Below are positions 1 through 59,236 of a DNA stretch of 64,000 bases, in pieces. The notes under the pieces are model-generated. The model was not told the DNA's origin, made no database searches, and saw only the letters and a list, made by a program, of their open reading frames with translations. Both the position numbers and the translations under genes were made by a program. Each line of letters begins with the position of its first letter. Within the stretch, counting starts at the first letter, position 1. The DNA is from a virus. Location: IMG/VR virus record IMGVR_UViG_3300015264_000002, positions 1,210 to 65,209 of that record; one strand, 5' to 3'.

Positions 1-576
1 CTGCGCGGCGCAGTGCAGGGCATGCTCACCGTGCAGGCACTCGCGCCCGACGCCGACCAGGTCGCCGTGCCGGCCGACGACGTGCGGACCTGGGCCGCGG
101 CGCGCGCGGCCGAGCTGGTCGGCAAGCGCGTGTTGCCCGACGGGTCGGTGATCGACAACCCCGACGCCGAGTATGCGATCACCGACACCACGCGCGACAT
201 GCTGCGCGCCGCGATCGCCGGCGTGTTCCAGGATGGCACCGACAAGGCCACGTTCACCGCCGAGCTCGAGGCCAGCTACGCATTCAGCGAGGACCGCGCG
301 GACCTGATCGCGCGGACGGAGATCAGCAACGCGCTGGTGGGCGGCAATATGGCCGGCTGGCGCGCCAGCGGCGTGGTGACGGGCAAGGAATGGGTGCTGT
401 CCGACCTGCACGCGGTGGCGGACGAGTGCGACGACAACGCGGCAGCGGGCGTGATCGGCATTGACGAGGTGTTCCCCAGCGGCGACGACCAGCCGGGGGC
501 GCACCCAAAATGTGAGTGCGACCTGATCCCCCACGTGGGGGACGATACGGCCGCCACGGGCGGCGAGGAGGGGTAG
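1..576 (+). CDS. Head morphogenesis protein (SPP1 gp7/Mu gpF-like), 5'-truncated
   Basis: RADLIARTE...GKEW...C..N...HPKCECDL motif typical of gp7/F proteins; frame open from window start. Confidence 0.85.
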   Translation: MRGAVQGMLTVQALAPDADQVAVPADDVRTWAAARAAELVGKRVLPDGSVIDNPDAEYAITDTTRDMLRAAIAGVFQDGTDKATFTAELEASYAFSEDRADLIARTEISNALVGGNMAGWRASGVVTGKEWVLSDLHAVADECDDNAAAGVIGIDEVFPSGDDQPGAHPKCECDLIPHVGDDTAATGGEEG

Positions 577-581
577 CAACC

Positions 582-950
582 ATGGCGAAGCGCAGGGGCA
601 GCAGGTGGGGGCGGGTGCTGGTGCTCGACCTGGCGCTGGTGCTGGGCGGTGCGGCGATCGCGTCCGCGTGGCCGCTCGTGTCGGCCGGCCACGGGTCGGT
701 CAGCCAGCGGCCGTCGTGCACGGTGGCGATCCGCGGGCTGTCCTACAGCGCGCGCGACTGCAAGGCCGTCGACTGCAGCAAGGGCCACGGCACCTGGCAG
801 TGCGACCAGGTGTGCACGGCGACCGGCTGGGTGTCGGGGCTCTGCGTGTCGAGCGCGGGCGTGGTGAGTCTCAATCCGACCACAACCACGACGACCGCGG
901 CGCCGACGACCACGGTGACCACGACCTCGTCGACGACGACCACGACCTAG
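582..950 (+). CDS. Secreted/membrane-anchored Cys-rich protein with Thr-rich tail
   Basis: ATG 582; basic N-terminus plus hydrophobic helix; 6 Cys; C-terminal TTTTTTAAPTTTVTTTSSTTTTT. Confidence 0.7.
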   Translation: MAKRRGSRWGRVLVLDLALVLGGAAIASAWPLVSAGHGSVSQRPSCTVAIRGLSYSARDCKAVDCSKGHGTWQCDQVCTATGWVSGLCVSSAGVVSLNPTTTTTTAAPTTTVTTTSSTTTTT

Positions 951-1032
951 CCGCAGGCGGGTCTGCGGGCGCTCGCAGGGGGCGCGTGATAGGGGAGACA
1001 CCGGAGCAGCAGCCGCGGGGAGCGGGGAGGGT

Positions 1033-1476
1033 GTGACGATGGGGTGGATGCGGACAGCGCGACGGGCGGCAGTGCTGGCGCTCGGCGCACTCGGGCTCAG
1101 CGCCGGCATGGTGCGTGCCGGCGCCTTCCCGGTGATCACGCAGCCGCCGGCCAACGGCGCGGCCGGGGATTACGAGATCATCAACGGCAGCTGTGCCGTG
1201 CCGCCGTGCGAGGGCGGATCGTTCTCGCTCATGGCCAGCGACAGCCCGGTGCTGCTAACCGATTGCACCGGTACGTGCCGGGTCACGCTGGTATGTCGGC
1301 CGCCCCACTTCCAGCACGATATCCTCGTGGCCGACTCGGGCACGCTCACCGACGCCGTCGGGGCGCCGGTGCCGATCCTGACGGCCTGCCCTTACTTGTT
1401 CCGGCGGATCACCATCTGCACGGCGGGCACCTGCAAGGTGCGCGCGCGCGTGCTCGAGATCCGGGGGAACTGGTAG
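1033..1476 (+). CDS. Secreted Cys-rich protein
   Basis: Signal-peptide-like N-terminus ([20 protein letters not shown]); multiple Cys; GGGGAG upstream. Confidence 0.7.
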
Positions 1477-1478
1477 CC

Positions 1479-3308
1479 ATGCGGCCGCGCACGACGCTCG
1501 CTCTGGCGCTGGTCCTCGGGCTCGGGCTGTTCGCGCTACGGCTGGCGACGGATCTGGGCCAGTCGGACAGCGAGGCGCAGTACAATCGCAACGCGGGGGG
1601 CAGCGGGGGCAATGGTCCGACCGGGCCGACGGGGCCGACCGGCGCCACCGGCGCGACGGGACCTACTGGCGCGACCGGGGGCGCGGGCGCCACGGGCCCA
1701 ACCGGACCCACCGGCCCGACGGGGAGCACGGGGGCGACGGGACCGACAGGCCCCGGATTGCTAACGACCCCATTCGCGACCCCCTTCGGGCCGGCACAGG
1801 TGGCGACCTCCGCGATGGTGGGCGGCGAACTCTGCGTCTGCCAGTTGGGGGTAACGCCGCCGCACGCCGGGATCGACAGGGTTGGGCTGGCCATGTCTCA
1901 GGTGGGGGGCGGCACCGTCAGCGAGGTTGGCGTGTTCTCCCTCAGCGGCGCGACGCGCTATGTGCGGGCCTCGCTGCGGCCCGTCCCGATCGGCGACGGC
2001 GGCCCCGCGGTGCTTGCAGCGATGGCCCCGGTAGGCGTCGGGACGGACGGGAGCGGCAACCTCTACATCGCGGACGTTGCGCTGAACGGCATCCGTCGCG
2101 TGGATCACGCAACCCAGACCATCACGAGCATCGCGGGACAGCCACCCACCTCGGGCTTTGCCGGGGATGGCGGCGTGGCGACGAGCGCCTTGCTGAGGAC
2201 CCCGACGGACATTGACCACGATGGCAGCGATTTTTACCTGGTCGATCAGCAGAAGCTCGTCCGGAAGATCGATGGGGGCACGGGCATCATCACGACGGTG
2301 GCGGGCGACCTCGCGGCGAGCGACTGCACAGGCGTCGGCGGCCCGGCAACGAGTGCTGGTCTCGAACTGATCGAGGACGTGGCTCGCGATAATACGACGG
2401 GCGACCTCTACATCGGCGGCCAGGGGTGCCACGTCGTCTATCGAGTGGACGGCACGACCGGCACGTTGACCACGGTCGCGGGGACGGGGACGGGCGGCTG
2501 TACCGGCGATGGGGGACTCGCCACGGCGGCGCAACTGAGCACGCCCTGGGGGGTGATGTTCGCGGCCAACGGGGATATCTATGTGGTCGATCCGGGCTGC
2601 CACGGTGTCCGGCGGATCGACCACACGACCGGCATCATTGCGGCCTTTGCGGGCACGGGGACGGCGGGGAACAGCGGCGACGGCGGGCTGGCAACACTGG
2701 CGCAGCTGGACGTCCCGTATGCGATCGGTCGGAACAGCGTGGGGGATATCGGGATTATCGACGCAGCCGCCGCGGTCCTCCGTCTCGTCGACCACACGAC
2801 GGGCATCATCACCACCCTTGCAGGCACGGGCACGGCCGGATTCTCCGGTGATGGCGGAGCCGCCACGGCGGCGCAACTGACGAGCCCGCAGTATGTGACC
2901 TTCGACAGCGCGGACAACGTGTTCATCGCGGACTTCGGCAACCACCGCGTCCGGCGGATCGACCAGGGAACGGGCATCATCACCACGGTGGCCGGGAGCG
3001 GGCTCAGCGATCCCTTCGGGAGCGGGCTGACGGTCGCCAACCTCGACGCCTCGGCCCCCGTGCCCGGGGGCCCGATCTGGTGGTGCGAAGGCGGCGACGC
3101 GCCCGGCGGGACGCTGGCGAGTCCGCAAGGCGACCAAATCGGCCGCGCGTCGCCGCAGCTAGGGCCGCCGACGGCCTACTTCACGGCGAGCTGCCCTGGC
3201 GGCACGATGCCGGCGACGATCACGCCCCCGAGTCCACTCACGCTGAGCAATATCGACGCGCTGTCCCAGGTGCTTCCCCCTGCGATCAGCTTCATCCGCG
3301 TGCCCTGA
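1479..3308 (+). CDS. Signal peptide + collagen-like + NHL-repeat (teneurin-like beta-propeller) protein
   Basis: ATG 1479; about 15 G-X-T triplets at 1614-1754; repeated GDGGxATxAxL..P..+.D..G.+YIAD..N..+R++D..TG.ITT+AG units. Confidence 0.85.
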
Positions 3309-3354
3309 CGAGAGCCGCTGACCCACGCCGACGCGCCCCCACGACGAGCAGGAT

Positions 3355-3582
3355 ATGAGGGTAAGCCAAGGGCCGTGCGAGACTACGCTGACCGAGAGGT
3401 TTGCTAATCCCGACTGCCGATGTGCGACGTACCCCGGAAATCTCGGACCCTGCGCGGCGTACGAGCGCGGGGGCAGCGGGCGTTGTGTCTACTGCGACCA
3501 CGATGCTGACTGTCACGAGCAGCTTGGGCGGATGACCCCCACTACACAGACTCCCCGCACGGGGTTCCGGCCACCGGGGTGA
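3355..3582 (+). CDS. Small Cys-rich hypothetical protein
   Basis: CxC, CxxC and HxxxCH motifs; fills gap in the operon. Confidence 0.5.
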   Translation: MRVSQGPCETTLTERFANPDCRCATYPGNLGPCAAYERGGSGRCVYCDHDADCHEQLGRMTPTTQTPRTGFRPPG

Positions 3583-3586
3583 TCCC

Positions 3587-4024
3587 GTGCCGGACGGGAC
3601 CCTACCGGCCAGCCTGACCAAGCACTGCCCGGGCTGCGCACAGCGTGGTCGCGTCGCTGACGTCCCCCTGTCCGCCTTCGGCGCCGACAAGCGCAGCCGC
3701 GACGGCCTGCAGGTCCGGTGCCGCCGCTGCCGGAACGAGTCCCATGCCACCCGTCAGCGCGGCGCGCGCGAGGACCAGGTGCTGGCCCGCCTCCCGCCGG
3801 AGGAACGCCTGCGCGTCGCGCGGCTGCGCGAGCAGCGCGACGAGCTGCTGCTGGCGCTCCTCGGGCTCGAGCACCGGGTGAGCCAGCTGGAGGCCGCGCG
3901 CGGCCCCAGCCCCTTCGCCGGCGGCGTGTCTGACGTTCCCCTGGACCCGCACCTGCGCCGGGTCGAGCGCGCGCGGCGCGCCGAGGCCGACACCGGGGGC
4001 GAGCCGGCGCTGTTGAAGGGCTGA
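3587..4024 (+). CDS. Zn-finger protein (KxCxxC...F.AD.R.RDGLQ..CxxC) with coiled coil
   Basis: Motif resembles the N-terminal zinc module of phage HNH/endonuclease VII proteins; no nuclease core seen. Confidence 0.6.
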   Translation: MPDGTLPASLTKHCPGCAQRGRVADVPLSAFGADKRSRDGLQVRCRRCRNESHATRQRGAREDQVLARLPPEERLRVARLREQRDELLLALLGLEHRVSQLEAARGPSPFAGGVSDVPLDPHLRRVERARRAEADTGGEPALLKG

Positions 4025-4029
4025 CCGGG

Positions 4030-4278
4030 GTGCCGATCCCCCCGGGCGTCTATCCCTGCCAGCTGGCCGCCGCCCAGCTGGGGGCAGCGCCGGCAGCGCC
4101 GGCCACCCCGCCACCGGCCCGCGGGCACTTGATCACCAGCCGCCCGCTGCGCCCCGGCGACGCGTCCGCCCACCTGGTGGCCGTCCTGCGGCGCTTCTCG
4201 CCCGCCGATCAGCAGGCGATCGTCCACGACGTGCTGGCCGCGCTGCGCCCGGGCTGGGTGCAGGACCGCCGCGGCTAG
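4030..4278 (+). CDS. Hypothetical protein
   Basis: Tightly packed ORF in + operon. Confidence 0.4.
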   Translation: MPIPPGVYPCQLAAAQLGAAPAAPATPPPARGHLITSRPLRPGDASAHLVAVLRRFSPADQQAIVHDVLAALRPGWVQDRRG

Positions 4279-4345
4279 CCGCGCCCGCGGCCCGGTGCGT
4301 CGTCCGTGCCGGTTTGCGGCACTGCCACGCATCACAGCAAGGCAC

Positions 4346-6508
4346 GTGGCCAGAGTGTCCACCGCTGTCAGCGCCGATACCGTCCTGGCTGACGCCGCGG
4401 CGGCCGCACGCGCGGCCCTGGCCGCCGCGGCACCGCCCCTGCGCCTCTTCATCCCGCTCACCAAGGTCGACCTGGTCAAGCGGGAGGTGTGGGGGATCGC
4501 GGCCGAGGAGCGGACGGACAAGTCGAAGCGCGAGAAGATGGACTATGCGTCGAGCAAGCCCTTCTTCCAGGCGTGGTCGGACGGTCTCGCCGCCGTCACG
4601 GGCGGCATGTCGCTCGGCAACGTGCGGGCCATGCACCAGCCGATCGCCGCCGGCCGCCTGATCAGCCTGCTCTTCGACGACGCCAACAAGCAGGTCCACG
4701 TCGGGGCGCATATCGTCGACGACGCCGAGTGGAACAAGTGCGCGCAGTGGGTCTACACCGGCTTTTCCGTCGGCGGCTCGTACGCCGCGCGCTGGGCCGA
4801 CCCCGACGAGCTCGGGGTGGTCTGCTACACCGCCAACCCCTGCGAAATCTCGCTCGTCGACAACCCACAGATGTGGGGCGCCAACTTCACCGTGGTCAAA
4901 GCGGACGGTGCCACCGAGCTGCGCAAGTTTGCGAGCGCGCCGGCCGAGCGGCTGGCCGAGCTGATCAAGGGGTACGCCGACGGCATCCCCACCAGCCAGC
5001 TGGCACAGTCGATCGCGCACCATATCGACACGGCCAAGTACAACGCGACGCACGCGGCGTCGCATGCCGAGGCGGCGGTCACGACCGTGACGGAGCTCGA
5101 GGACCTGGCGCGCGCCGCGATCCCCGCGGTCAGCGCGCACCTGGCGGCGCTCGACGCCGCCCGCACGGCCGGGGCAACCGCCGTGGGGAAGGGGGCGGGC
5201 AGCATGCGCACCGCAGCGACCGCGACCGACCTGTACAAGGGCGGCGACGGCAGCGGCGACTACGGCACGGCCGACGAGGCGGGCTATGCCGACCCGGGGT
5301 ACCAGGACGACAAAAAGCCGCGGTACCCGCTGAAGGAGGGGGGTAAGCTCTCCCCGAAGCGGATCCGGGCGGCGTTCAGCTACATCAACAAGCCGACCAA
5401 CGCCGCCAAGTACTCGACCAAGCAGGCGGCCGCGATCAAGGGCAAGATCGTGCGGGCCTGGAAGGCCGCGATCGACGCGGACGGGCCGCCGAGCGCGCAG
5501 AAGCTGGCGGCGGTGTACCCGCACAACGCCGCGGTACTCGCCAAGGTCGCGCACACGGGCGGCCTGATCAAGACCCTGTGGGACGTCGGCCGGCTGGCCG
5601 AGATCCTGCAATCGCTCGACTGGATGTGCGAGTCCCTGGAGGCCGAGGCGGACAGGGAGAAGGACGACAGCCCCGTGCCCGGCGCGCTCGCCGCGATCAT
5701 CCAGGCCCTCGGCAACGTGCTGGTGGTGATGACGGCCGAGGAGGTGAGCGAGCTCGACGCCTTCGACGACGACGAGGTGGCCGAGGGTGTCGCCACGGCC
5801 GCCGGGCTGTTCGGCACGCTGCGCAAGGTCGACGCGTACAAGGGCATGCGGAAGCGCGTGCAGAAGGTCCACGACATGAGCATCGAGATGGGCGCGGCGT
5901 GCGCGTCCATGGACAAGGTCGCAACTGCCGCGGCGGGTGCCGCCGCGCCTACACGGTTGGAGGTGGAGGACATGGACGAGGCGGGCCTGGCGAAGGCAAT
6001 GGGCGCGCTGCTGGGTGGCCCCGACGGGCTGCTGACCAAGGCCGTCAATGACGGTCTGACGGCAGTGGTCAAGCCGCAGCTGGATGCGCTGACCAAGGCG
6101 CAGACGGATCAGGCGGCGGTCGTGACGGCGCTGGCAGCGACGGTGACGGCGCAGGGGACGCTGCTCGAGAAGGTCGCGGGCAGGCCGGCCGATCCGGGCG
6201 CGGCACCGCACACCGGCGCGGCGCCGGTGGTCACGGTCGACAAGCCGGCCGAGGTGGCGGCCAATGCGGGCGCCGCGGCGGCGGCCGCGCTGACGGTGGT
6301 ACCGACGCGCAAGTCGGCGCGCGAGCTGGCCAAGATGAGCGCGCAGGAGCGCGACGACTACGGCATGGACCTGCTCAAGGGCAAGTTCACCGGCTGCGAC
6401 GGGCCCGGCATGCCCGGCCGCGGCGCGATGAAGCACGAGGGGCCGCTACCGCTGATGGGCCGCCAGGGCCCGGGCGGGATCGCCACCCCGGGCGTGGGGG
6501 CCATCTAG
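4346..6508 (+). CDS. Prohead maturation protease/scaffold fusion
   Basis: LFIPLTKVD...VWGIA...GNVRAMHQ...YTGFSVGG protease-like domain; YADPGYQDDKKPRYP..RAAFSYINK module; Ala-rich helical C-terminus; directly upstream of capsid gene; start GTG 4346 or 4355. Confidence 0.75.
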   Translation: MARVSTAVSADTVLADAAAAARAALAAAAPPLRLFIPLTKVDLVKREVWGIAAEERTDKSKREKMDYASSKPFFQAWSDGLAAVTGGMSLGNVRAMHQPIAAGRLISLLFDDANKQVHVGAHIVDDAEWNKCAQWVYTGFSVGGSYAARWADPDELGVVCYTANPCEISLVDNPQMWGANFTVVKADGATELRKFASAPAERLAELIKGYADGIPTSQLAQSIAHHIDTAKYNATHAASHAEAAVTTVTELEDLARAAIPAVSAHLAALDAARTAGATAVGKGAGSMRTAATATDLYKGGDGSGDYGTADEAGYADPGYQDDKKPRYPLKEGGKLSPKRIRAAFSYINKPTNAAKYSTKQAAAIKGKIVRAWKAAIDADGPPSAQKLAAVYPHNAAVLAKVAHTGGLIKTLWDVGRLAEILQSLDWMCESLEAEADREKDDSPVPGALAAIIQALGNVLVVMTAEEVSELDAFDDDEVAEGVATAAGLFGTLRKVDAYKGMRKRVQKVHDMSIEMGAACASMDKVATAAAGAAAPTRLEVEDMDEAGLAKAMGALLGGPDGLLTKAVNDGLTAVVKPQLDALTKAQTDQAAVVTALAATVTAQGTLLEKVAGRPADPGAAPHTGAAPVVTVDKPAEVAANAGAAAAAALTVVPTRKSARELAKMSAQERDDYGMDLLKGKFTGCDGPGMPGRGAMKHEGPLPLMGRQGPGGIATPGVGAI

Positions 6509-6625
6509 GGGCACAGGAACCTAGGATCTAGGTCGCTAGGCGCTAGCGACCGCGGCAGCATCGACACACGCGACACGACAGCGCCGCTGCATTGGGCAGG
6601 GGCGGAGGAGGAGGAGGCGGGGACC

Positions 6626-8161
6626 ATGGCAATGCAACCGGCGCTGGATCCACAGATCCGCCAGCTACAGGCACTGCTGGCGACGCTGCCGCCCGACGTA
6701 CTGGCCAAGGCCACGTACGGGCTGAGCGGGAGCCCTGTCACGGGGCTGACGTACTACGACCTGGAGGAAGAGGCCAAGGTGTTCGTGCCCGAGATCACGC
6801 CGCTGGTCGGCCTGATCCCGCGCGTCAAGGGCAAGGGCGGCACGGCCACCAACTGGCAGGTGATCACGGCCCTCAATAGCGACCGTCTGCCCATGGGCGT
6901 CGCGGAGGGGGCACGCGGCGGGGTCATGGACATCCAGACCAGCCGGCAAACGGCGCCGTACGCCACCATCGGGATCGAGTCCAGCCTGACGTTCGAGCAG
7001 GACCTGGCCGCGATGGGATTCGAGGACATGAAGGCCCTCTCGACCCGCAACCTGCTGCAGGTCGCGCGGATCGGGGAGGAGGCCCTCGACGTCGGCGGCA
7101 ACCTCGACGTGGTGCTCGGCACCACGCCCACGGTCGCGGGCACGCCCAGCAACACCGGCGGCACGCTGACCAACGCCCACGGCGCCTACCACGTGCGCTG
7201 CGTCGCCCTGACGCTGCAGGCGTGGCGGCGCGCGACCATGGTGAAGGGCGTCCCCGTCCAGCACACCTACACGCTCGGCAACGGGGTGTCGCAGACGGTC
7301 AACGGCGGCGCCGCCAAGGTATCCGCCGATGCCACGGTCACGATCGCGGCCGGCACCACCGGCAGCGCCGACCTGATCGTCACCGCCGTGCCGGGTGCCG
7401 TCGCCTATGCATGGTTCGCCGGCGACAACGCGACCACGACCTGCCTCCTGTTCGCCATCACGACGGTCAACGAGGTGCTGCTGACCGATCCCCCCGGCGC
7501 GATCATCGCCGCGTCCGGCTTCGCCACCGCGGTCGGGACCAACTTCGACACCGACCGGTCGACCAATGACCTGGTCTACAACGGCCTGATCAGCATTATC
7601 AGCAAGGCCGGCAGCGGCAGCTACGTGAAGTCCCTCGACAACACGAAGCTGACGAGCGACGGCGCCGCGGGGTGCGTCGAGGTGAACACGCTGCTGCGCA
7701 CCATGTGGGACACCGTCAAGGTGACGCCGACCATCATGCTCATGAACGCCCAGGAACTGGTCGATCTGAGCGACCTGGTCGTCAAGAACGGCGGCGCCCC
7801 GATCATCCGCATGCAGATGGACGCCAACTCGAGCACGCCCGGCATGGCCACGATCACCGCCGGAACCGTGGTCGGGTTCTACCTCAACAAGACGGCCCAG
7901 GGCGGCGGGCAGATCCTCAAGGTGATCCTGCACCCCGACATTCCGCCCGGCATGATCCTCTTCTACAGCGAGCGGATCAGCTACCCGGTCCCCGGCGTGG
8001 TCAACATCATCCAGGTGAAGACGCAGGAGGAGTGGCGGCAGATCGAGTGGCCGCTGGTGACCCGTGAGCACCAGTACGGCGTCTACGCCCGGCAGGTGCT
8101 GCAGTGCTACTACCCGCCGGCGTTCGCCATGCTCTACAACATCGCCCCGCAGGCATCGTAA
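6626..8161 (+). CDS. Major capsid protein
   Basis: GLTYYDLE..AK...P..TPL...IPRV.G.GG.ATNW..IT motif; very strong RBS GGAGGAGGAGGAGG; position after protease. Confidence 0.85.
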   Translation: MAMQPALDPQIRQLQALLATLPPDVLAKATYGLSGSPVTGLTYYDLEEEAKVFVPEITPLVGLIPRVKGKGGTATNWQVITALNSDRLPMGVAEGARGGVMDIQTSRQTAPYATIGIESSLTFEQDLAAMGFEDMKALSTRNLLQVARIGEEALDVGGNLDVVLGTTPTVAGTPSNTGGTLTNAHGAYHVRCVALTLQAWRRATMVKGVPVQHTYTLGNGVSQTVNGGAAKVSADATVTIAAGTTGSADLIVTAVPGAVAYAWFAGDNATTTCLLFAITTVNEVLLTDPPGAIIAASGFATAVGTNFDTDRSTNDLVYNGLISIISKAGSGSYVKSLDNTKLTSDGAAGCVEVNTLLRTMWDTVKVTPTIMLMNAQELVDLSDLVVKNGGAPIIRMQMDANSSTPGMATITAGTVVGFYLNKTAQGGGQILKVILHPDIPPGMILFYSERISYPVPGVVNIIQVKTQEEWRQIEWPLVTREHQYGVYARQVLQCYYPPAFAMLYNIAPQAS

Positions 8162-8177
8162 CGGGGCAAGCAAGCTA

Positions 8178-8214
8178 GCCGGCCCGCGCCGCGCCCACGG
8201 CGGCGCGGGCCGGC
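8178..8214 (+). terminator. Perfect 15-bp GC hairpin after capsid gene
   Basis: GCCGGCCCGCGCCGC-7 nt-GCGGCGCGGGCCGGC; no U-tract, so it may be a stabiliser or attenuator. Confidence 0.55.
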
Positions 8215-8238
8215 GGTAGCAGGAAGGACACCCCCACC

Positions 8239-8649
8239 ATGGGCCGTTTCCGTCTCCCCCGCGGTATCACCCACCTGGTCGCCGGCGGCGTCGAGTACCT
8301 GCCGGACGACTACGGCGAGCTGGACCTGCCCGAACATCTGCACGCGATCGCCAAGCGGCTGCGGCTGCTGCCGGTCGGCGCCCGCGTGACCCCGGCCCCG
8401 GCACCCCCGGCGCCCGACGGCGACCAGGGCGGGGACGGTGGGGCACCGGCGGGTACGGACGGCGACGCGGCTGCGGGCGGGGTGGCCACCGAGGGCGCGG
8501 GCGGCGCACCTGACGACGCGACTGCGGGCGACGCGGCGACAGAGGGCGCCGGCGCGGCACCTGACGACGCGACTGCGAGCGACGTGGCCACCGAGGGCGC
8601 GGGCGGGGAGGCCCCCGCCGCAAAGGGTAAGGGGAGCAAGCGGAAGTAG
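8239..8649 (+). CDS. Small head-associated protein with acidic Ala/Gly repeats
   Basis: RBS AGGAAGGA; position between capsid and adaptor genes. Confidence 0.65.
   Translation: MGRFRLPRGITHLVAGGVEYLPDDYGELDLPEHLHAIAKRLRLLPVGARVTPAPAPPAPDGDQGGDGGAPAGTDGDAAAGGVATEGAGGAPDDATAGDAATEGAGAAPDDATASDVATEGAGGEAPAAKGKGSKRK
8464..8610 (+). repeat. About three tandem 51-bp repeats (DAxAGxxATEGAGxAPD)
   Basis: Units start at 8464, 8515 and 8566. Confidence 0.85.
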
Positions 8650-8651
8650 GC

Positions 8652-9293
8652 ATGCCCGGGGCAGGCGACACCTTCTGCACGCCCGAGGCGGTGCAGGCGT
8701 ACCTGGCGGCGGGCGGGCTGGTCACCAGCGACCTGGTCGAGCTCGGCAACCTCGTGCGCCGCTGCACCGGCATGGGGTGCGACGCCATGGGGCTGCCGCC
8801 CCGGCAGGACGGCAAGCCGCGCACGCCGTACCTGGACACGTACGTCGAGCGGTACAACGGCGGCGGGGGCTACAAGCTGCTGCTGCAGCAGTACCCGGTC
8901 GCCAGTGTCGAGCAGCTGATCGTCGACGGCAAGGTGATCCCGGGGGCACCCGACACCGCGCCGCTGTCCGCCGGCTTCGTCGTCGACGGTGCCCTCGGCG
9001 TCGTCGGCCTCCGCGGCGCCGCGAGCTTCGGGTTCGGCTACCCGTGGCGCTTCACCAAGGGCCTGCAGAACGTCGAGGTGCACTACACGGCCGGGCTGCC
9101 AGAGGGCGACCCGATCGTCGACGGGCTCGAGGCGGCGTGCGTCGAGCACGCGGCGCTCGCCTGGAAGCGCATCCCCCGCACCGGGCTCAAGTCCGAATCC
9201 TTCGACAAGGCCACCACGGCCTACATCACCGCCGCCATGCCCGACACCGCGGCGGCCTTCTACCGGTCCCGCCGCCGCCGGGTGTTCATATGA
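8652..9293 (+). CDS. Head-tail adaptor/connector
   Basis: YPVASVEQL.VDG..IP, F.KG.QNVEVHYTAG, ACVE..A..WKR...G..SESF motifs. Confidence 0.8.
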   Translation: MPGAGDTFCTPEAVQAYLAAGGLVTSDLVELGNLVRRCTGMGCDAMGLPPRQDGKPRTPYLDTYVERYNGGGGYKLLLQQYPVASVEQLIVDGKVIPGAPDTAPLSAGFVVDGALGVVGLRGAASFGFGYPWRFTKGLQNVEVHYTAGLPEGDPIVDGLEAACVEHAALAWKRIPRTGLKSESFDKATTAYITAAMPDTAAAFYRSRRRRVFI

Positions 9294-24032: not shown

Positions 24033-24998
24033 GTGCTGCTCTTCCGCCCAGGCTTCGACCGTGTCGCCCCGCCCGGATACTATGGCGGCGCCGGCTTTGC
24101 GGACGACTTCGCTGCCATGATCGCAGGGGTGTACGCGGGCCATTTCCCCTTCGACGTCCTGATCAACGGGTACAGCGGGTATTACTATCCGCAGTTCGGC
24201 TCAGCGTCCACGTTCAACCTCCGGGTGGGTGGGATCGACGTGCCCGACTCTAGCCTGATCCTTGGGACGTCTGCGGGTAGTGGCGGCCTGGTCAGGCTCG
24301 CCAATCCCGCCCCGCTCCCTGGCGTCACGCCGGCGAACGTTGACGGCGCCTCGCTTATTGCCATCGTCACAACGGACCCCGGCAGCGGCATTTGCAACGC
24401 CGTCCTGGATTACACGGCCGCCAGTGCGGCGGACCTGGGTAAACAGGTCATGGGCATCGGACACAAGATCCTCGCTGACACCGGCAGCGTTGGGGCCTTC
24501 TCGGGCTTCTTCAGCGCCATCAGCAACTCGCAGCTGGTGTCGTCGATCGTGCAGGGCACTACCGGGAGCCCTATCAACACCCGGTCCATCTACTTCGGGC
24601 TCTCCTACGAGGACGTGTTTGGCGACCGCTCCCCGGGGACGCTTGAGGACGTGCGCGTGCTGGCAGCACAGTATTGGCCCCTCGCCGGCACCTTCTCCGA
24701 CTTCCTGCTCGTGATCCATAGCGTGGGGGGGGCTGACGGGCATTACCGCTTCGGGTTCCGGAAAAACGGCGTGACCGTGCTCACGCTCGAGTGCACTGCG
24801 AACGGGGATCGCGTTATCAGCCCCGTCGGCGCGACCACCGTGGACGTCAACGAGGGCGACCGCGTGTGCTGGCTGTGCGAGGCCGTCGACGGCGGCGCCG
24901 TCCAGCTAGATGCCGAACTCATCTGGGCGTTCCGGGCAGGCGAACAGTCGGTCGGGCCGGCCTTTGGTGATGCCGGCGTAGGGGGAGGGGGACTATGA
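24033..24998 (+). CDS. Putative receptor-binding/tail-associated protein
   Basis: C-terminal P.AGT.SD..V.......FRKNG....V.V.EGD.V beta-sandwich pattern; more A/T-ending codons. Confidence 0.55.
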   Translation: MLLFRPGFDRVAPPGYYGGAGFADDFAAMIAGVYAGHFPFDVLINGYSGYYYPQFGSASTFNLRVGGIDVPDSSLILGTSAGSGGLVRLANPAPLPGVTPANVDGASLIAIVTTDPGSGICNAVLDYTAASAADLGKQVMGIGHKILADTGSVGAFSGFFSAISNSQLVSSIVQGTTGSPINTRSIYFGLSYEDVFGDRSPGTLEDVRVLAAQYWPLAGTFSDFLLVIHSVGGADGHYRFGFRKNGVTVLTLECTANGDRVISPVGATTVDVNEGDRVCWLCEAVDGGAVQLDAELIWAFRAGEQSVGPAFGDAGVGGGGL

Positions 24999-25558
24999 GA
25001 CGACTCTTGATGGTGGTGGTGTTGCTGGCGTGCACCGCGCTTGCGCGGGCGCAGTGCGACCCGTTCGTGAGCCCGGGCACGACGCTCGGCTGCGGGCTCT
25101 ATCTCGCCAACTGCAACGAGTGTGCGTGCACGCAGATGCAGGGGAACATCAATCTCCTCTGCACGAGCATGGCGAAGTGGAACGCGAAACACGTCCACCG
25201 GCTCACGTGGTTCTTCTCGGGGACGCCCACAGCTGGCGTACAGGCCACCCGCGAGATCGTCCCCGACGGGCTCACCAACTGCGCGATCACCGCGAGCGAG
25301 ATCACCGCGAACACGACCGCCTCCAGCTCCTCGACGTGGAATATCCAGCGTTGTACGGCCAACTTCCCGAATCAATGCACGTCCACGGCCAACGTGGCGG
25401 GCAGTAACAATACGCTCGGGTCCAGCACGCAGACAGCCTTTGGCACGGTTACCACGAGCACGATCACGGCGGACGACATTTTCAAGATCAACCTCGTCAC
25501 GGTCGGCACCTCGCTGGCCAACGTGACCGTTGCCCTGACCTTTGCGTGCGACAACTGA
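24995..25558 (+). CDS. Signal-peptide Cys-rich protein
   Basis: MRRLLMVVVLLACTALARA-Q classic Sec signal; 8+ Cys. Confidence 0.7.
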   Translation: MRRLLMVVVLLACTALARAQCDPFVSPGTTLGCGLYLANCNECACTQMQGNINLLCTSMAKWNAKHVHRLTWFFSGTPTAGVQATREIVPDGLTNCAITASEITANTTASSSSTWNIQRCTANFPNQCTSTANVAGSNNTLGSSTQTAFGTVTTSTITADDIFKINLVTVGTSLANVTVALTFACDN

Positions 25559-26633: not shown

Positions 26634-26870
26634 GTGGTGGGAGGACGGCGGCACCTGGTAGTAACCACGCGGCTGCTGCTCCTGGCCCTGATCGTCAGTG
26701 GCCCCGCCCTGGTGTGCGAGAATCGGGATGGTGGCCCGATCCGCTGCTTCCGGCTGTCACCGCACGCTCGTTACGACCTGGATAGGCTGCCGGTCTGGCC
26801 CCGCGGGCCAGCCCCCGCAGCCGCGACCCCGGCGAGCGCGCCCGTCCCCGGCGCTGAGGCGGGCCGGTAG
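26634..26870 (+). CDS. Small membrane/secreted protein
   Basis: Hydrophobic LLLLALIVSG segment; start uncertain. Confidence 0.35.
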   Translation: MVGGRRHLVVTTRLLLLALIVSGPALVCENRDGGPIRCFRLSPHARYDLDRLPVWPRGPAPAAATPASAPVPGAEAGR

Positions 26871-27241
26871 TGGACGCCAGCACGATCGCCGGCCTGGTCG
26901 TCAGCGGCGTGCTGACGGCGCTCCTCGTCGCCGTCCTCCGCAGCGGCACCGTGCGGGGGGCTGAGCAACGGGCGCAGCATGCGGAAAACAGCGGCCGGCT
27001 GCAGGAGAATAGCCAGCAGCTGCAAGCGATCGTCGACGACATCCGGGCGATCAACGGCCGCGTGCGGGCGACCGAGACGTCGGGCGCGGCGGACGTGACC
27101 GATCTGCGGGCGCACATTGAACTCGACCGCGAGGTACGGCGCCTGACGGAAGCGGCCGCGGTGCAGCTGCGCCAGGACGTCAACGACCTGCGCGCCGACG
27201 TGAAGGCGTTGCTGACGCGCGTCCGGGGGCGGCAGCAATGA
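26870..27241 (+). CDS. Membrane-anchored coiled-coil lysis protein (holin-associated or i-spanin-like)
   Basis: N-terminal TM helix, coiled coil, INGRVR motif; coupled to endolysin gene. Confidence 0.55.
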   Translation: MDASTIAGLVVSGVLTALLVAVLRSGTVRGAEQRAQHAENSGRLQENSQQLQAIVDDIRAINGRVRATETSGAADVTDLRAHIELDREVRRLTEAAAVQLRQDVNDLRADVKALLTRVRGRQQ

Positions 27242-27783
27242 CCCCCGCGGAGCAAGTCGTGTGCGATCGCGTGCTCGCCTGGCGTCCACTGGTCGCCGCC
27301 GTCGTGCCCAAGCTGGACGTGTGGCTGCTGCTCGGCCTGATCGCGCAGGAGTCGCAGGGCGATCCGTGGTGCTGGCGGTACGAGCCCGGCTTCTGGTCGA
27401 TCCACAAGCGGGCGATCCTGGCCGAGATCACGCAGGCCGGGCACGCCGCGTGGCTGCCGCACGGGCGGCTGACGCCCGAGGACTTCGACGCCGCCTGCGA
27501 TCGCCGCGCCGCCCTGCTGGCGGCCAGCTACGGACTGTGTCAGCTGCTGCTGTCGACGGCGCTCGAGCTGGGCGCGGCCGTCACGTACCCGGTGCAGCTG
27601 TGTGATCCGACGCTCAACCTGCAGCTGGGCGCGCGCAAGCTGACGGCGTGCTTCCGGCCGATCGGCACCGACACCGAGCCGATCGTGGCGGCGCTGCTGC
27701 GCTACAACGGCGGCGCCGACGCGACCTATCCGACGCACGTGCTCGCCTGGCGCGACCTACTGATCACGGCGGGGCGCACGTGA
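27238..27783 (+). CDS. Endolysin, lytic transglycosylase (SLT)
   Basis: LI.QES catalytic motif, SYGLCQL, DP..NL.LGA..L, YNGG. Confidence 0.9.
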   Translation: MTPAEQVVCDRVLAWRPLVAAVVPKLDVWLLLGLIAQESQGDPWCWRYEPGFWSIHKRAILAEITQAGHAAWLPHGRLTPEDFDAACDRRAALLAASYGLCQLLLSTALELGAAVTYPVQLCDPTLNLQLGARKLTACFRPIGTDTEPIVAALLRYNGGADATYPTHVLAWRDLLITAGRT

Positions 27784-28022
27784 GCACCGAGGTGGGCGTG
27801 ACGGAGACGGAGGAGGCGCTGGCCGTCAGCAATGAGTCGACGGACCTGCTCGCGCTCTTCACCTTCGTCAGCCACGCCGCTGCCCAGGTGGTGGCGGGCC
27901 ACCGGCTGGCGGCCGACAGCGGGACGCCGTACGACACGGCGCCGGGCGACGACCTGCTGGCGGACCTGGACGCCTACCGGCGCGCGCGCGCAGCGGGTAT
28001 CGCGCACCACGGGGCGGCCTGA
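27780..28022 (+). CDS. Hypothetical protein
   Basis: GTGA overlap with endolysin stop. Confidence 0.5.
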   Translation: MSTEVGVTETEEALAVSNESTDLLALFTFVSHAAAQVVAGHRLAADSGTPYDTAPGDDLLADLDAYRRARAAGIAHHGAA

Positions 28023-28164
28023 TGCGTGCAGTGGCGGTCGCCCTGGCGGTGCGGCGCTGGTGGCTACGGCTAGTACAGGGACGACGGGATCAGGGCACGC
28101 GCAGCGGCCGTCGCTGCGCCCAGCCGCGCTGGCGAGGCTGCAGCGCGCGAAGGAGGGGAGCGAC

Positions 28165-28449
28165 ATGAGCAAGGCAGCAGTGGTGGCGGTGTTGGTAGGT
28201 GCGCTCGCGCTCGCCGGCTGCGGGGTCACGGGCCCCAAGGTCCGGTTCGCCCCGTCGGGTGACGGCATCGCCCAGGCGCAAGGGCCGGGGGTCGACGGCA
28301 ACCTGTCGGACCCCGACGGCGTGGTGGTGGCCAGCGGGTCGTTCTATCTCAACCCCGCGGCCGCGGTGTCCCTGGTGCTGACCTACCTGGGCGACCTGCT
28401 CGACCTGGGGGGCGGCCGGAGTAACCCCGCGCCGACACCGGGCAAGTAG
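28165..28449 (+). CDS. Lipoprotein (spanin candidate)
   Basis: RBS AGGAGG; MSK + hydrophobic + LAGC lipobox. Confidence 0.7.
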   Translation: MSKAAVVAVLVGALALAGCGVTGPKVRFAPSGDGIAQAQGPGVDGNLSDPDGVVVASGSFYLNPAAAVSLVLTYLGDLLDLGGGRSNPAPTPGK

Positions 28450-28455
28450 GGCCGG

Positions 28456-28743
28456 GTGGCCGATCAGGACGTACCGCCAGGGGCCGCCGTGCCCCTGGCG
28501 GTCGAGGATCCGCGGTGCGGGTGCGAGCTGCAGTTGCGGCGCGAGCGCGCGCTGTCCGTGGCGCTGTGGCTGGCTATCGTCTGCGTCGGCGCGGTCGCCG
28601 TCTCCGCCATCTGGTCGTACCCCAAGTGGGAGGGCGGGGTGGTGCAGGCCGTCACGATCCTAGGCGCCGTGATCAGCGGCATCATGACCGGCAAGTACGC
28701 GGTCATGTCGCCCACGGGGAACGGGAACGGCAAGCCGCACTAG
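28456..28743 (+). CDS. Holin candidate (2 TM)
   Basis: Two hydrophobic helices, 95 aa, in lysis cassette. Confidence 0.55.
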   Translation: MADQDVPPGAAVPLAVEDPRCGCELQLRRERALSVALWLAIVCVGAVAVSAIWSYPKWEGGVVQAVTILGAVISGIMTGKYAVMSPTGNGNGKPH

Positions 28744-47867: not shown

Positions 47868-49286
47868 CGTCGACCGATCGCCAGCGCGACGCGCTGGGCG
47901 CGCAGGGCCGTGTGGGGTGTATAGAACCGGAAGGGGAGGGAACGACGCGATGCTGACGACACCAGTGCTGGGTCCGATCACAAGCCATGGGCGCCCGACG
48001 CTCTTGTGGTCCGCCGCCCCGGGGGCGGCCGGCTACCTGATCGAGCGCGCATACGGCTGGGGTCCGTTCAAGGCGATCGCCTACGTGGCGGCGCCGCTGA
48101 CGTCCTACATCGACAACCAGCAGGACGGCAGCAACGGGTTCGTCCGCGTCGGCCACAATCGGTACCGCCTCCGCGCGGTAGCGGCCGACGGCCAGGGCAA
48201 CTCGCCACCGTCAAGCTGGGTGGACGCGGCCTACGGGACGACGACGCCGCTAGCGGCGCGCCGGCTGCTGGCCGCCACCGCCAACCGGCTGGTGATCGTC
48301 GATCCGGAGGCGGGGACTATCCTGGGCGCGACGCCGCCCGATGCGGTGTTCGCGGGCGCGGCGGCGATCGTCGTGGTCGGCACGCGGGCGTACGTGCGGG
48401 CTAACGGGCGCCTCCTGGTCGTCAACGTCACCAACCCGGCTGCACCGGTGCTCACCGCGGTCCTGGTCGATGCGCGCCTGGCCGAGGTGGGGGACGGCCC
48501 GGGCGAGCGCGACGGCGGCCAGTCGCTGCTGGCCTGGTCGCCGTCCCGCCTCCTCGTGTCCTGCTTCCTCGCGGGCACGCTCCTGTCTATCGACGTGAGC
48601 GATCCGACGCGGCCGCGCGTCGCCGGCGAGATCGCGCCCGGCGGCGTGGTCAACTTCGTCTCGGGCCAGCCGCTATGTCTGGCGCGCCTCGATGCGACGC
48701 GCGTGCTGTGGCCGGGGAACGCCAATCCGCACGTACCCGTGGTGGACGTGACGGACCCCGACGCGCCCGCCCTGACGAACGCCTGGGGGTCGTGCGTCCT
48801 GCACATGGGCGAGGGCCCGTGCGCCCTCGTGGTCGACGGGCGACGCGCGATCGTCGCCGTCGACGTCGGCGGCCTCTGCCTCTTCGACCTTGCGGACCCC
48901 GCGCAGCCGGTGTGCGTGGGCGCGTTGCCCGTGCCGGCGATGACCATCACGCCGACGCTTGCGTATGACCCGAGCTACGGCCAGGTGGTGGCCGTCTGCC
49001 CGGGACCGGACGCCGGTGCGGCCGCGCCCGCGCAGCTCGTTCTCCTTGACGTGACGGTGTCGGCTAGCCCGCGGCTCGTCAGGACGGTGCCGCTGGTTGC
49101 GCGCGCCGCCGCGGTCGTCCTCCTCGACCGGCGGGCGGTCGTCCTCGAGGAGGGCGCCGTGGTTGCGTTCGACCTCGACCAGCCCGACCAGCCACCGCGC
49201 ACCGTGGCGGACGCACAGCTGGTCGGCGCCGGCGCGCTGGCCGTGGCGTCGCCGTGATACTGACCGATCGCCAGCGCGACGCCCTG
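47852..49286 (+). repeat. 45-bp imperfect direct repeats (47852-47896 and 49242-49286) flanking one gene
   Basis: 39/45 identical; perfect 21-nt core GACCGATCGCCAGCGCGACGC. Confidence 0.85.
47950..49257 (+). CDS. FnIII-like + LVIVD-type beta-propeller protein
   Basis: L.W.A..GA.GY.IER...SY.D....YR+RAV; repeated LL.VDVSDP..P units; RBS GGGGAGGG. Confidence 0.75.
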   Translation: MLTTPVLGPITSHGRPTLLWSAAPGAAGYLIERAYGWGPFKAIAYVAAPLTSYIDNQQDGSNGFVRVGHNRYRLRAVAADGQGNSPPSSWVDAAYGTTTPLAARRLLAATANRLVIVDPEAGTILGATPPDAVFAGAAAIVVVGTRAYVRANGRLLVVNVTNPAAPVLTAVLVDARLAEVGDGPGERDGGQSLLAWSPSRLLVSCFLAGTLLSIDVSDPTRPRVAGEIAPGGVVNFVSGQPLCLARLDATRVLWPGNANPHVPVVDVTDPDAPALTNAWGSCVLHMGEGPCALVVDGRRAIVAVDVGGLCLFDLADPAQPVCVGALPVPAMTITPTLAYDPSYGQVVAVCPGPDAGAAAPAQLVLLDVTVSASPRLVRTVPLVARAAAVVLLDRRAVVLEEGAVVAFDLDQPDQPPRTVADAQLVGAGALAVASP

Positions 49287-57902: not shown

Positions 57903-59236
57903 GGCGGAGATCAAGCTGGGCGGGCGGCCGGCTGCTGATCGACGGCGCCGAGGTCGGCCGCGTGCTCAGCGTCACCCTCGGGCACGACATGGCCGACGCC
58001 GTTGTCAAGTACAAGGCCCCCAGCGGTGCGGTGCACATCACCAGGTGCGCGGGGTTGCGGCCCCTCGACCTGGAAGCGGCGCAGTCGGACGGTATCCTGC
58101 CCCCGTGTGACCAGCCCGCGTGCAAGGGGCACGTGCGACATAGCGACGGCACGGTCAATCCGCTGTGCATCCACGATCCCGCGCGGCGGCGGTTCGACCC
58201 CGCGGAGCTCGCCGCTGACGTCGGCCGCGTGCTCTCCCAGGTCGTACCCCGTCCGTTCCTGGTGCCCACGCGTCGTGACCCCGTTGCGCGCGCCGCAGTC
58301 GACGGCATGCTCGGCGCCGGCGTAGCTCAGGCGGTAGAGCGCGTCACTCGTAATGACGAGGCCGCCGGTTCGAGTCCGGCCGCCGGCTCGCCGGTCGGGG
58401 AGGCGCTGCAGCTGCCGCGGCCGTTCCTGCCCAAGCTGCGACCCTGGGGCGGCCCGCGTCCTATTGGCCTCGACCCATGGCGAGCGGCCTCGTCCACCCC
58501 CTGGTACGTCATGGGCACCGGAGCGACGACGCACGCGGCGTGGGAGGACTCGTGGGAGGACTACTGCCGCAGGGCCCGCGGCTTCGTGCTCGAGCAGCTG
58601 GTCCAGTTCGTCAGCTGGGCGGGCCTGCCGGAGGTGTCCCCCCACACGCACCTCGTAATCACCCTGCGTCGTGGCGAGTGGACCCACGGGGTACAGCCGC
58701 ACAGCTACCTCGCGCAGTACGACGTCGACGTGTGCACCGGATCGCGGCCCGACGGCCCCGACCGCGAGGTCTACAGCTACGGCGAAGCGGTCACCGCGTT
58801 GCACGGGGCGGCCTGGCAGGCCGTCGCCGCGGCAATCGACCGCGCGGGCCGGTCCATTGGGCCGGCCGTCGCCGTATGGTCCGAGCACCCCATCGCGTTT
58901 GCTGACGAGGTGTGCAGCGAGCAGGGAATCACCTGGTCGCCTCCGTACGGTCGCTTCCGCTGCGTCACGTGCGACCACCTGCTGGACGAGCTCGAGCTGG
59001 CGTGCCACCCGCAGGGTAAGCCGCCGGCGCTGGACGGGACGCCGGCAGCGGCGGTCTCTGCGGCGGTCGACGTCAAGCTGACGATGGAGCAGCGGACGCG
59101 CGCCGAGGACGACGTCGCCACCGTGCTGCGCTGGCGCGACGAGCACCTGGCGCTGCTGTACCAGGCCCTGCGTCGGGGCAGCTGGACGGACGACCACGCG
59201 CGCCTGGTGCTCAAAAAGGTGGGCTGGTTGCTGTGA
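57895..59236 (+). CDS. Hypothetical ORF (apparent frameshift near 57917) whose frame stays open across the tRNA
   Basis: ATG 57895 frame joins 57962 frame by removing one G; open to 59236; may in reality be two genes. Confidence 0.45.
58316..58388 (+). tRNA. trnT: tRNA-Thr(CGT), no encoded CCA
   Basis: GCCGGCG acceptor / GCTC-GAGC D arm / CGTCA-CTCGTAA-TGACG anticodon arm / GCCGG-TTCGAGT-CCGGC T arm / CGCCGGC-T. Confidence 0.95.

Follow-up and report, generated by a model that had tools for sequence, protein, structure and literature searches.

The exported-type gene cassette

The stretch of DNA analysed here, in the following termed the window, comprises 64,000 nucleotides (positions 1,210 to 65,209) of the IMG/VR virus record IMGVR_UViG_3300015264_000002, which in full consists of 65,643 bases with direct terminal repeats and is judged complete. 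Near the start of the window, three consecutive genes on the plus strand, A (582..950, 122 amino acids (aa)), B (1039..1476, 145 aa) and C (1479..3308, 609 aa), are situated within the head module of this phage, and each encodes a protein with a signal-peptide-like N-terminus. The upstream border of the insert is the MuF-like (head morphogenesis) C-terminal part of a portal/MuF gene (1..576, plus strand), which is recognized by PHROG portal/head morphogenesis families (E 1.5e-18) and, below the cut-off, by Pfam Phage_Mu_F (E 5.6e-6). The downstream border is a prohead protease/scaffold fusion gene (4295..6508, plus strand; PHROG head maturation protease, E 1.7e-8). An earlier note made from the sequence had pointed to three adjacent genes of this type between the head-morphogenesis and protease genes, and their coordinates and boundaries hold, with the start of B refined to the ATG at 1039.

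A, B and C are real coding genes. Their high third-position GC content (GC3; 0.97, 0.90 and 0.85 in A, B and C versus 0.93-0.94 in the flanking head genes) marks them as coding, and a Shine-Dalgarno-like site precedes each of them, with the ribosome-binding site GAGGAGGGG located 8 nucleotides (nt) upstream of A and GGGAGGG preceding B, whereby the ATG at 1039 is preferred over the alternative GTG start at 1033. While the IMG gene calls shorten all three N-termini, the calls on a 66,412-bp contig, a second assembly of the same phage, give the long forms of 122, 145 and 609 aa. The start of A lies 5 nt past the MuF stop codon and that of C 2 nt past the stop codon of B, the gaps within the trio being 2-88 nt; structured RNA was not detected in the A-B gap (z -0.10). 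Neither a sigma-70-like promoter nor an intrinsic terminator was found in positions 1-7000 by a consensus scan, which is weak for a 72% GC genome. Together, the tiny gaps and the lack of such signals suggest that the trio is co-expressed with the head genes.

Predicted signal peptides

A Sec-type signal peptide is strongly indicated by the sequence of each of the three proteins. As judged by a home-made, crude n/h/c rule set, the N-termini of A, B and C possess a net charge of +2 to +4, a hydrophobic core of 16-20 residues and small residues at positions -3/-1, the site of C being taken up further below. The N-terminus of A combines five basic residues with a 20-residue hydrophobic stretch and a predicted cleavage site ASA↓W or VSA↓G (signal peptide at about residues 1-34), B has three Arg, a 16-residue core and the predicted site AGA↓FP (residues 1-29), and in C the sequence MRPR is followed by a 16-residue core, which constitutes a signal peptide or signal-anchor at residues 1-23 (nt 1479-1547). 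At the native start, five out of 66 open reading frames (ORFs) of the window pass the rule set, three of which are the adjacent genes A, B and C. Furthermore, all 15 members of the A, B and C families pass, although their N-terminal sequences have diverged.

The cleavage sites predicted for homologues are AFA↓Q, ASA↓Q, AAA↓Q and ARA↓D, and Gln occupies position +1 in six of the eight full-length B homologues, in the C-like protein of the metagenome locus L085 described below and in a protein encoded at 24995-25558. Gln after the signal-peptidase site has been described as the ‘Q-rule’ for Bacteroidota (PMC5837995), a pattern that sits oddly with the 69-72% GC content and the alphaproteobacterial kin of the phage.

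The gene at 24995-25558 (plus strand) encodes a fourth exported-type Cys-rich protein, located inside the tail-tip module in a region of lower GC. Its predicted signal peptide ends in ARA↓Q, its body is rich in Asn, Ser and Thr, a hydrophobic segment is located at the C-terminus and the Cys number 11; no Pfam match was obtained, and homology to A was considered and dismissed (BLASTP E 1.7). The gene adjoins host-specificity genes, a position reminiscent of T5 llp or cor, which block receptors.

The proteins encoded by the cassette

The contents ascribed to the cassette by the earlier note, a Cys-rich protein with a Thr tail, a second Cys-rich protein and a collagen-stalked teneurin-type NHL propeller, are borne out. 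Each of A, B and C contains an even number of Cys that is conserved within its family.

In A, a Cys-rich domain at residues 46-88 (nt 717-845), with six Cys at positions 46, 60, 65, 74, 78 and 88, is followed by a 25-residue tail composed mostly of Thr (residues 98-122, nt 873-947). A and its homologues in the metagenome loci L085 and L086 have in common the spacing C-x4-C-x8-C-x13-C, a Trp and a poly-Thr tail down to the string TTTTTTAAPTTT, with C60, C65, C74 and C88 as the conserved Cys columns. No Pfam family reaches its cut-off with A; an assignment as defensin-like (PF24552) was rejected at 18.8 bits versus a cut-off of 27, as neither A homologue matches this family either. An AlphaFold2 model made without an alignment was unusable (mean predicted local distance difference test (pLDDT) 44.5) and the ESM Atlas provided no usable lead for A. 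The phage also encodes a tRNA-Thr with the anticodon CGT (58316-58389, plus strand). A tie between this tRNA and the Thr tail of A was rejected because ACG is the main Thr codon phage-wide, accounting for 48 of 74 Thr codons in C and 119 of 190 in the tape measure gene.

B consists of its predicted signal peptide followed by a mature, 8-Cys, all-beta jellyroll domain. A word-indexed search of 5.8 billion proteins returned for A and B only the phage's own copies, while an exhaustive HMMER search uncovered a B family of about eight small proteins of 137-154 aa that are 37-46% identical; taken as a whole, the family spans 37-54% identity. All full-length members open with a predicted signal peptide of textbook type, which in most of them closes with AxA↓Q and gives way to a poly-Thr stretch. 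The alignment shows conserved Cys columns. Two homologues lack both Cys 76 and Cys 80, as would be expected of a disulfide pair, and a third lacks only one of the two. Four long ‘matches’ to B (P0130-P0133) were discarded as repetitive Ig/PKD proteins that have only a DSGxLTD-like strand in common with B (hhalign probability 3.7%). Scans with the A and B family profiles found nothing in IMG/VR or in GTDB genomes, and one marginal 37-column match in a sample of 401 alphaproteobacterial genomes was discounted.

An AlphaFold2 model of B built on a nine-sequence alignment reaches a pLDDT of 80-93 over residues 41-142 and shows the all-beta jellyroll. Foldseek retrieved nothing for this model in the PDB at E <= 1e-3, and the ESM Atlas returned generic beta-sandwich neighbours only. 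In a wide structural search, PBSX XepA (6i56_D, Z 8.6) and SPbeta YomS (6i5o_A, Z 8.5) came out on top, with Z values barely above those of many unrelated beta-sandwiches (Z 7.9-7.0), and the BPP-1 cement protein 3j4u_H and an Ena pilus subunit followed at Z 7.6 each; the KHP40 cement protein 7dou_4 was matched by Foldseek at E 0.02. B has no sequence match to XepA or YomS, and the modelled likeness to these proteins may serve as a lead only.

The collagen-like part of C consists of 18 unbroken GXY triplets of the GPT/GAT type (residues 40-93, nt 1596-1757), separated from the hydrophobic N-terminal segment by just 16 residues. This 54-residue run would measure about 15 nm, a sizeable part of a periplasm. 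It is followed by a CxC motif at residues 119-121, six NHL blades at about residues 190-510 (nt ~2046-3008) with the repeat motif ‘hhhhD..n..hrrhD..tG.httlAG’, and a 100-residue C-terminal tail with two of the eight Cys of the protein. Pfam TEN_NHL (PF25021; E 3e-18, 66.2 bits versus a cut-off of 27.1) and NHL (PF01436; E 1e-7, 31.8 bits versus a cut-off of 20) recognize the propeller, and Collagen (PF01391; E 7e-4, 19.8 bits) stays below its cut-off of 27.2. PHROG collagen-like tail-fibre families match C down to E 2e-10, and in the PDB a bacterial teneurin-like protein (9ifo_A, E 4e-57) and, on the collagen part, BclA (E 6e-6) are retrieved. NHL homologues of C number in the thousands, are bacterial, 40-50% identical and abundant among bacterial surface proteins; a collagen domain is listed for none of the top 120 of them, and this phage is the only place where signal peptide, collagen and NHL were seen fused.

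The second propeller-type accessory gene of the phage, at 47917-49257 (plus strand), matches the Pfam LVIVD repeat (E 4e-7) and lacks a signal peptide, so that the phage carries two unrelated beta-propeller cargo genes.

Conservation and insertion site

A profile scan of metagenome contigs revealed two loci with the A-B-C gene order, and the whole module is thus known from three sequences, namely this phage, L085 and L086. In L086 (2,357 bp, GC 0.69), the C-terminus of MuF is followed by an A-like gene, a B-like gene, one extra gene and a gene for a signal peptide plus (GPT)n collagen protein that is cut by the contig end. The MuF protein of L086 is 55% identical to that of the phage and the A-like gene starts at the MuF stop. 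In L085 (3,033 bp, GC 0.69), an A-like and a B-like gene (about 50-54% identical) precede a gene for a signal peptide (AFA↓QY) plus short collagen protein (1000-2052), the 300-residue head of which is not NHL and has no family match. The head domain on the collagen stalk thus differs between relatives. The trio directly follows MuF in both sequences that show the upstream gene (this phage and L086). The same order and families in L085 and L086 argue for an inherited three-gene module with a swappable collagen head rather than a chance cluster. The earlier note had allowed for the proteins being ordinary cytoplasmic decorations, free of signal peptides and with homologues at the same locus; the homologues that exist at this locus carry predicted signal peptides.

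Synteny, which the note had proposed to follow up, is retained in the two metagenome loci. Homologues of A, B, C or the three further ORFs of the insert were absent from 160 more distantly related viral or prophage loci with major capsid proteins (MCPs) 36-46% identical to that of the phage. Homologues of the protease/scaffold protein are present in 147 of 164 related loci. Its gene directly follows the portal/MuF gene in Brevundimonas phage Polewnik, and in eight of the 13 kin in which both genes were detected the MuF-protease gap amounts to 7-156 bp, compared with 3.7 kb with six ORFs in this phage.

The insert remainder at 3355-4278 (plus strand) encodes orfD (3355-3582, 75 aa, 7 Cys), orfE (3587-4024) and orfF (4030-4278, 82 aa). 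OrfD has a weak coding signal (GC3 0.71) and no signal peptide. OrfE (GC3 0.92) encodes a CxxC...CxxC zinc-ribbon protein with weak PHROG matches to Lar-like, endonuclease VII and HNH families (E 1e-5), and the GC3 of orfF is 0.94. Homologues of the three were not found in L085 and L086; the cassette may have been brought in or moved by a mobile element of which these ORFs are what is left.

Other, unrelated inserts at the MuF/protease junction in some kin indicate that the junction tolerates cargo. At this junction (2356-5466), L007 encodes a 261-aa fibre-like protein with the N-terminal motif ‘LDLxxxKITNLADP...DAANKQYVD’ and two paralogous proteins of 273-277 aa with mildly hydrophobic N-termini. 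L074 (2295-8705) has a MuF gene with an intein-like insertion (a Hint-type block ending in HNC) and a gene for a 1,537-aa multi-domain protein between MuF and protease. Upstream of the protease gene in L037, L062, L056 and L025, portal-gene fragments with the common block ‘QVLMTVNIALRRQLWQLDYF...’ are separated by unrelated ORFs, which suggests that portal genes were broken by mobile inserts in several relatives. The idea that the larger portal-protease gaps in kin harbour similar cassettes was consequently rejected, several of them being portal genes broken by unrelated inserts.

The phage and its likely host

The MCP gene is located at 6626-8161 in the head module, and the tail module is of the gene transfer agent (GTA)/phiJL001 type, with DUF2460, Phage_BR0599, gp84_N, Phage-tail_3 and Rcc01698_C. 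Close phage relatives were not recovered by megablast of window positions 1-9000 against 50,697 phage records, nor did single-protein scans of IMG/VR with the MCP and the gene C protein yield a match. By capsid protein, Brevundimonas phages are the closest cultured phages (40% identity), and 80 prophage relatives in GTDB genomes (MCP 36-46% identical) reside almost all in Alphaproteobacteria, with a few in Desulfobaccales and Acidobacteria. As these kin prophages occur almost entirely in diderm bacteria, the host is most probably a diderm. The lysis genes at 26870-28743, coding for an SLT enzyme, a transmembrane (TM)/coiled-coil protein, a lipobox (LALAGC) lipoprotein and a two-TM holin-like protein, are consistent with such a host. 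The diderm kin and the lysis-gene set imply that ‘exported’ probably means the periplasm or the envelope. A ParB-type gene is present in the genome, and no integrase was seen among the genes scanned.

Within the lysis region, the lipoprotein-type signal (LALAGC) is opened by an internal start near 28160 in the frame 27832-28449 (plus strand), between the SLT endolysin and the holin-like gene. This internal frame is an o-spanin candidate, with the TM/coiled-coil protein encoded at 26870-27241 as its partner.

Function of the module and alternative explanations

We favour the view, to which we give an even chance, that A, B and C form a conserved accessory module which a small clade of tailed phages with high GC content carries in its late head operon, and that they act at the host envelope. 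That they constitute an exported accessory module at all is considered probable with good confidence, while a specific role in superinfection exclusion or receptor masking, the likeliest one, is a tentative proposal drawn from analogy. The three proteins most likely stand outside the cytoplasmically assembled virion. Conserved predicted signal peptides, even and conserved non-CxxC Cys counts and Thr spacers after the predicted cleavage sites point to folding outside the cytoplasm, and from their sequences the proteins look like cargo of the host Sec/signal-peptidase route and not like an export system, since nothing in the insert resembles export machinery.

In the proposed scenario, the trio would be transcribed together with the head genes and its products exported by the host Sec machinery, processed by signal peptidase and disulfide-bonded outside the cytoplasm. 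C would trimerize via its 18-triplet collagen segment and present the six-bladed NHL propeller as a ligand-binding head, being either freed into the periplasm or, if its anchor stays uncleaved, retained at the inner membrane, with A and B as small, disulfide-knotted partners whose Thr-rich spacers might be glycosylated. On the infected or lysogenic cell, the ligand of the module would be a glycan or receptor of the envelope, and its binding would either bar further phages from entry or keep progeny from being lost on cell debris.

Several observations weigh against this interpretation. The coupling to structural genes, the fixed place next to MuF and the collagen stalk with a swappable head would also fit a virion fibre. 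The promoter and terminator by which classic morons are recognized were not detected in positions 1-7000, and the GC3 of the trio resembles that of its flanks without a shift in composition, with only orfD (0.71) standing out. The aligned cleavage site of C, RLA↓TD, is non-canonical with an Arg at -3 and the least canonical of the three, so that an uncleaved inner-membrane anchor may be considered. Finally, the proposed exclusion or receptor-masking role is argued by analogy only.

The fibre-like features could mean that the periplasm is where A, B and C fold and acquire their disulfides, and that they encounter the cytoplasmically built virions only at lysis and then bind to the capsid or neck to give a collagen-stalked adhesin on the particle. 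The place directly after MuF in two phages, a gene organization that implies co-expression with structural proteins, the fibre-like genes of L007 at the same junction and a build of collagen stalk plus exchangeable head that is usual for phage receptor-binding fibres (PHROG collagen-like fibre, E 2e-10) speak for this explanation, as does the weak likeness of the B jellyroll to phage cement proteins (BPP-1 3j4u_H, KHP40 7dou_4). However, these cement-protein matches are within beta-sandwich noise, C has no recognizable virion-attachment domain and we know of no precedent for Sec-exported virion components of tailed phages, so that the explanation is judged quite unlikely. Similarly little credence is given to an elaborated form in which a disulfide-linked, possibly glycosylated fibre assembles outside the cytoplasm from B as the jellyroll subunit, A as the Cys-knot partner and C as the tip adhesin, and is either added to virions at lysis or coats the infected cell. 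If true and added to virions, it would be the first part of a tailed-phage particle matured via host Sec/Dsb, with the host range tuned by swaps of the C head. If, on the other hand, the hydrophobic N-termini were assembly or targeting segments of cytoplasmic head fibres, perhaps cut off by the prohead protease, the trio would not be exported in the first place. The location between MuF and protease would suit this, and ‘signal peptides’ predicted on phage capsid proteins have been ascribed to protease-cleaved segments (PMC10367356). Yet all 15 members retain n/h/c regions and AxA-type sites despite sequence drift, the Cys content is even, conserved and not of the CxxC type with one pair showing co-loss, and Thr-rich spacers follow right after the predicted cleavage sites in most B homologues, which renders this possibility very improbable.

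Expressed from a prophage or phage-plasmid, the trio might alternatively act in lysogenic conversion as an adhesin or biofilm factor that alters the sticking of the host cell to surfaces or partners. The collagen region of C matches BclA, a globular head on a secreted collagen-like protein is typical of bacterial adhesins, NHL homologues are abundant among bacterial surface proteins, the kin are often prophages and the genome contains a ParB-type gene. But the genes scanned did not include a recognized integrase, a search for promoter-like sites upstream of the trio came up empty (although it has little power for a high-GC host), C lacks a recognizable anchor to the cell surface or signal for secretion across the outer membrane, and a Sec signal alone reaches just the periplasm in a diderm host; we therefore regard such a role as unlikely. 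The best structural matches of B, XepA (Z 8.6) and YomS (Z 8.5), raise the question of whether the trio helps lysis or release by weakening the envelope or membrane, as XepA of PBSX is a late protein that is exported and not found in particles (PMC6834076). The Z values are, however, barely above those of generic beta-sandwich matches with no Foldseek match in the PDB at E <= 1e-3, sequence similarity to XepA is lacking and 23 kb separate the cassette from the lysis genes (26870-28743), all of which makes a release function improbable. For the ‘undescribed phage export system’ raised by the earlier note, nothing speaks beyond the adjacency of three exported-type proteins. Pfam and PHROG searches of 582-4278 gave no likeness to a translocase, secretin, ATPase or holin, and neither a membrane channel nor a multi-pass membrane protein is encoded there; over the six inserted ORFs they give NHL and collagen, plus sub-threshold defensin-like (A) and zinc-ribbon/HNH-Lar (orfE) matches. 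Each protein also carries its own predicted signal peptide of host type, and this idea is given next to no credence.

Relation to known systems

Genes for exported or membrane proteins within late operons are known as morons, with lambda lom and bor and the superinfection exclusion gene HK97 gp15 as lambdoid examples. A classic moron is a single gene that brings its own promoter and terminator, often differs in base composition and is dispensable for virion assembly. Like morons, A, B and C are genes for proteins of exported type placed between structural genes that are adjacent in relatives; unlike classic morons, they are three (of six) co-oriented genes with no detected signals and a host-like GC3, inherited as a set. 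The notion of the earlier note that such genes are unusual in a head module stands in so far as MuF abuts the protease gene in the nearest cultured and in several uncultured kin, but exported genes in late operons are, as morons show, not new as such.

Bacterial collagen-like surface proteins are represented by BclA of Bacillus, streptococcal Scl and Legionella Lcl. As in these proteins, a (GPT/GAT)n collagen stalk links the globular head of C to an N-terminal segment for export or targeting; C differs in that its head is an NHL propeller and not C1q-like or a V domain, its stalk has 18 triplets only, it is phage-borne and it comes with two small Cys-rich partners. With bacterial teneurin-like proteins and the sensor domain of PknD it has the six-bladed NHL propeller in common, to which C adds the collagen stalk and the signal peptide.

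PBSX XepA, which is produced late and exported beyond the membrane while being absent from particles (PMC6834076), is a beta-sandwich protein, and XepA and YomS are the top structural matches of the modelled B at a borderline score. XepA, though, is a pentameric dumbbell of a Gram-positive system encoded beside holin and lysin, whereas B is Cys-rich and encoded in the head module. Phages of Porphyromonas gingivalis possess several genes of unassigned function with Sec signal peptides (Matrishin et al., 2023; PMC10367356) and, as in these phages, Gln at +1 after the predicted cleavage is found in many B members. Those phages, their hosts and the protein families are unrelated, and no collagen/propeller protein or fixed three-gene order is described there (PMC10367356).

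Implications

Three features are new in this phage, namely the fixed gene trio, the two protein families without a name and the joining of signal peptide, collagen and NHL propeller in one protein. The genes of a phage structural operon are commonly taken to encode components for assembly in the cytoplasm. In this head operon, a fixed trio of exported type is kept across phages whose MuF proteins are just 55% identical. The A and B families have fewer than ten known members each, and the head of C is exchanged between relatives, as in receptor-binding proteins. This combination marks a putative host-interaction device and, together with the genes of the Porphyromonas phages, adds to the few reports of tailed phages that send several late proteins via the host Sec route.

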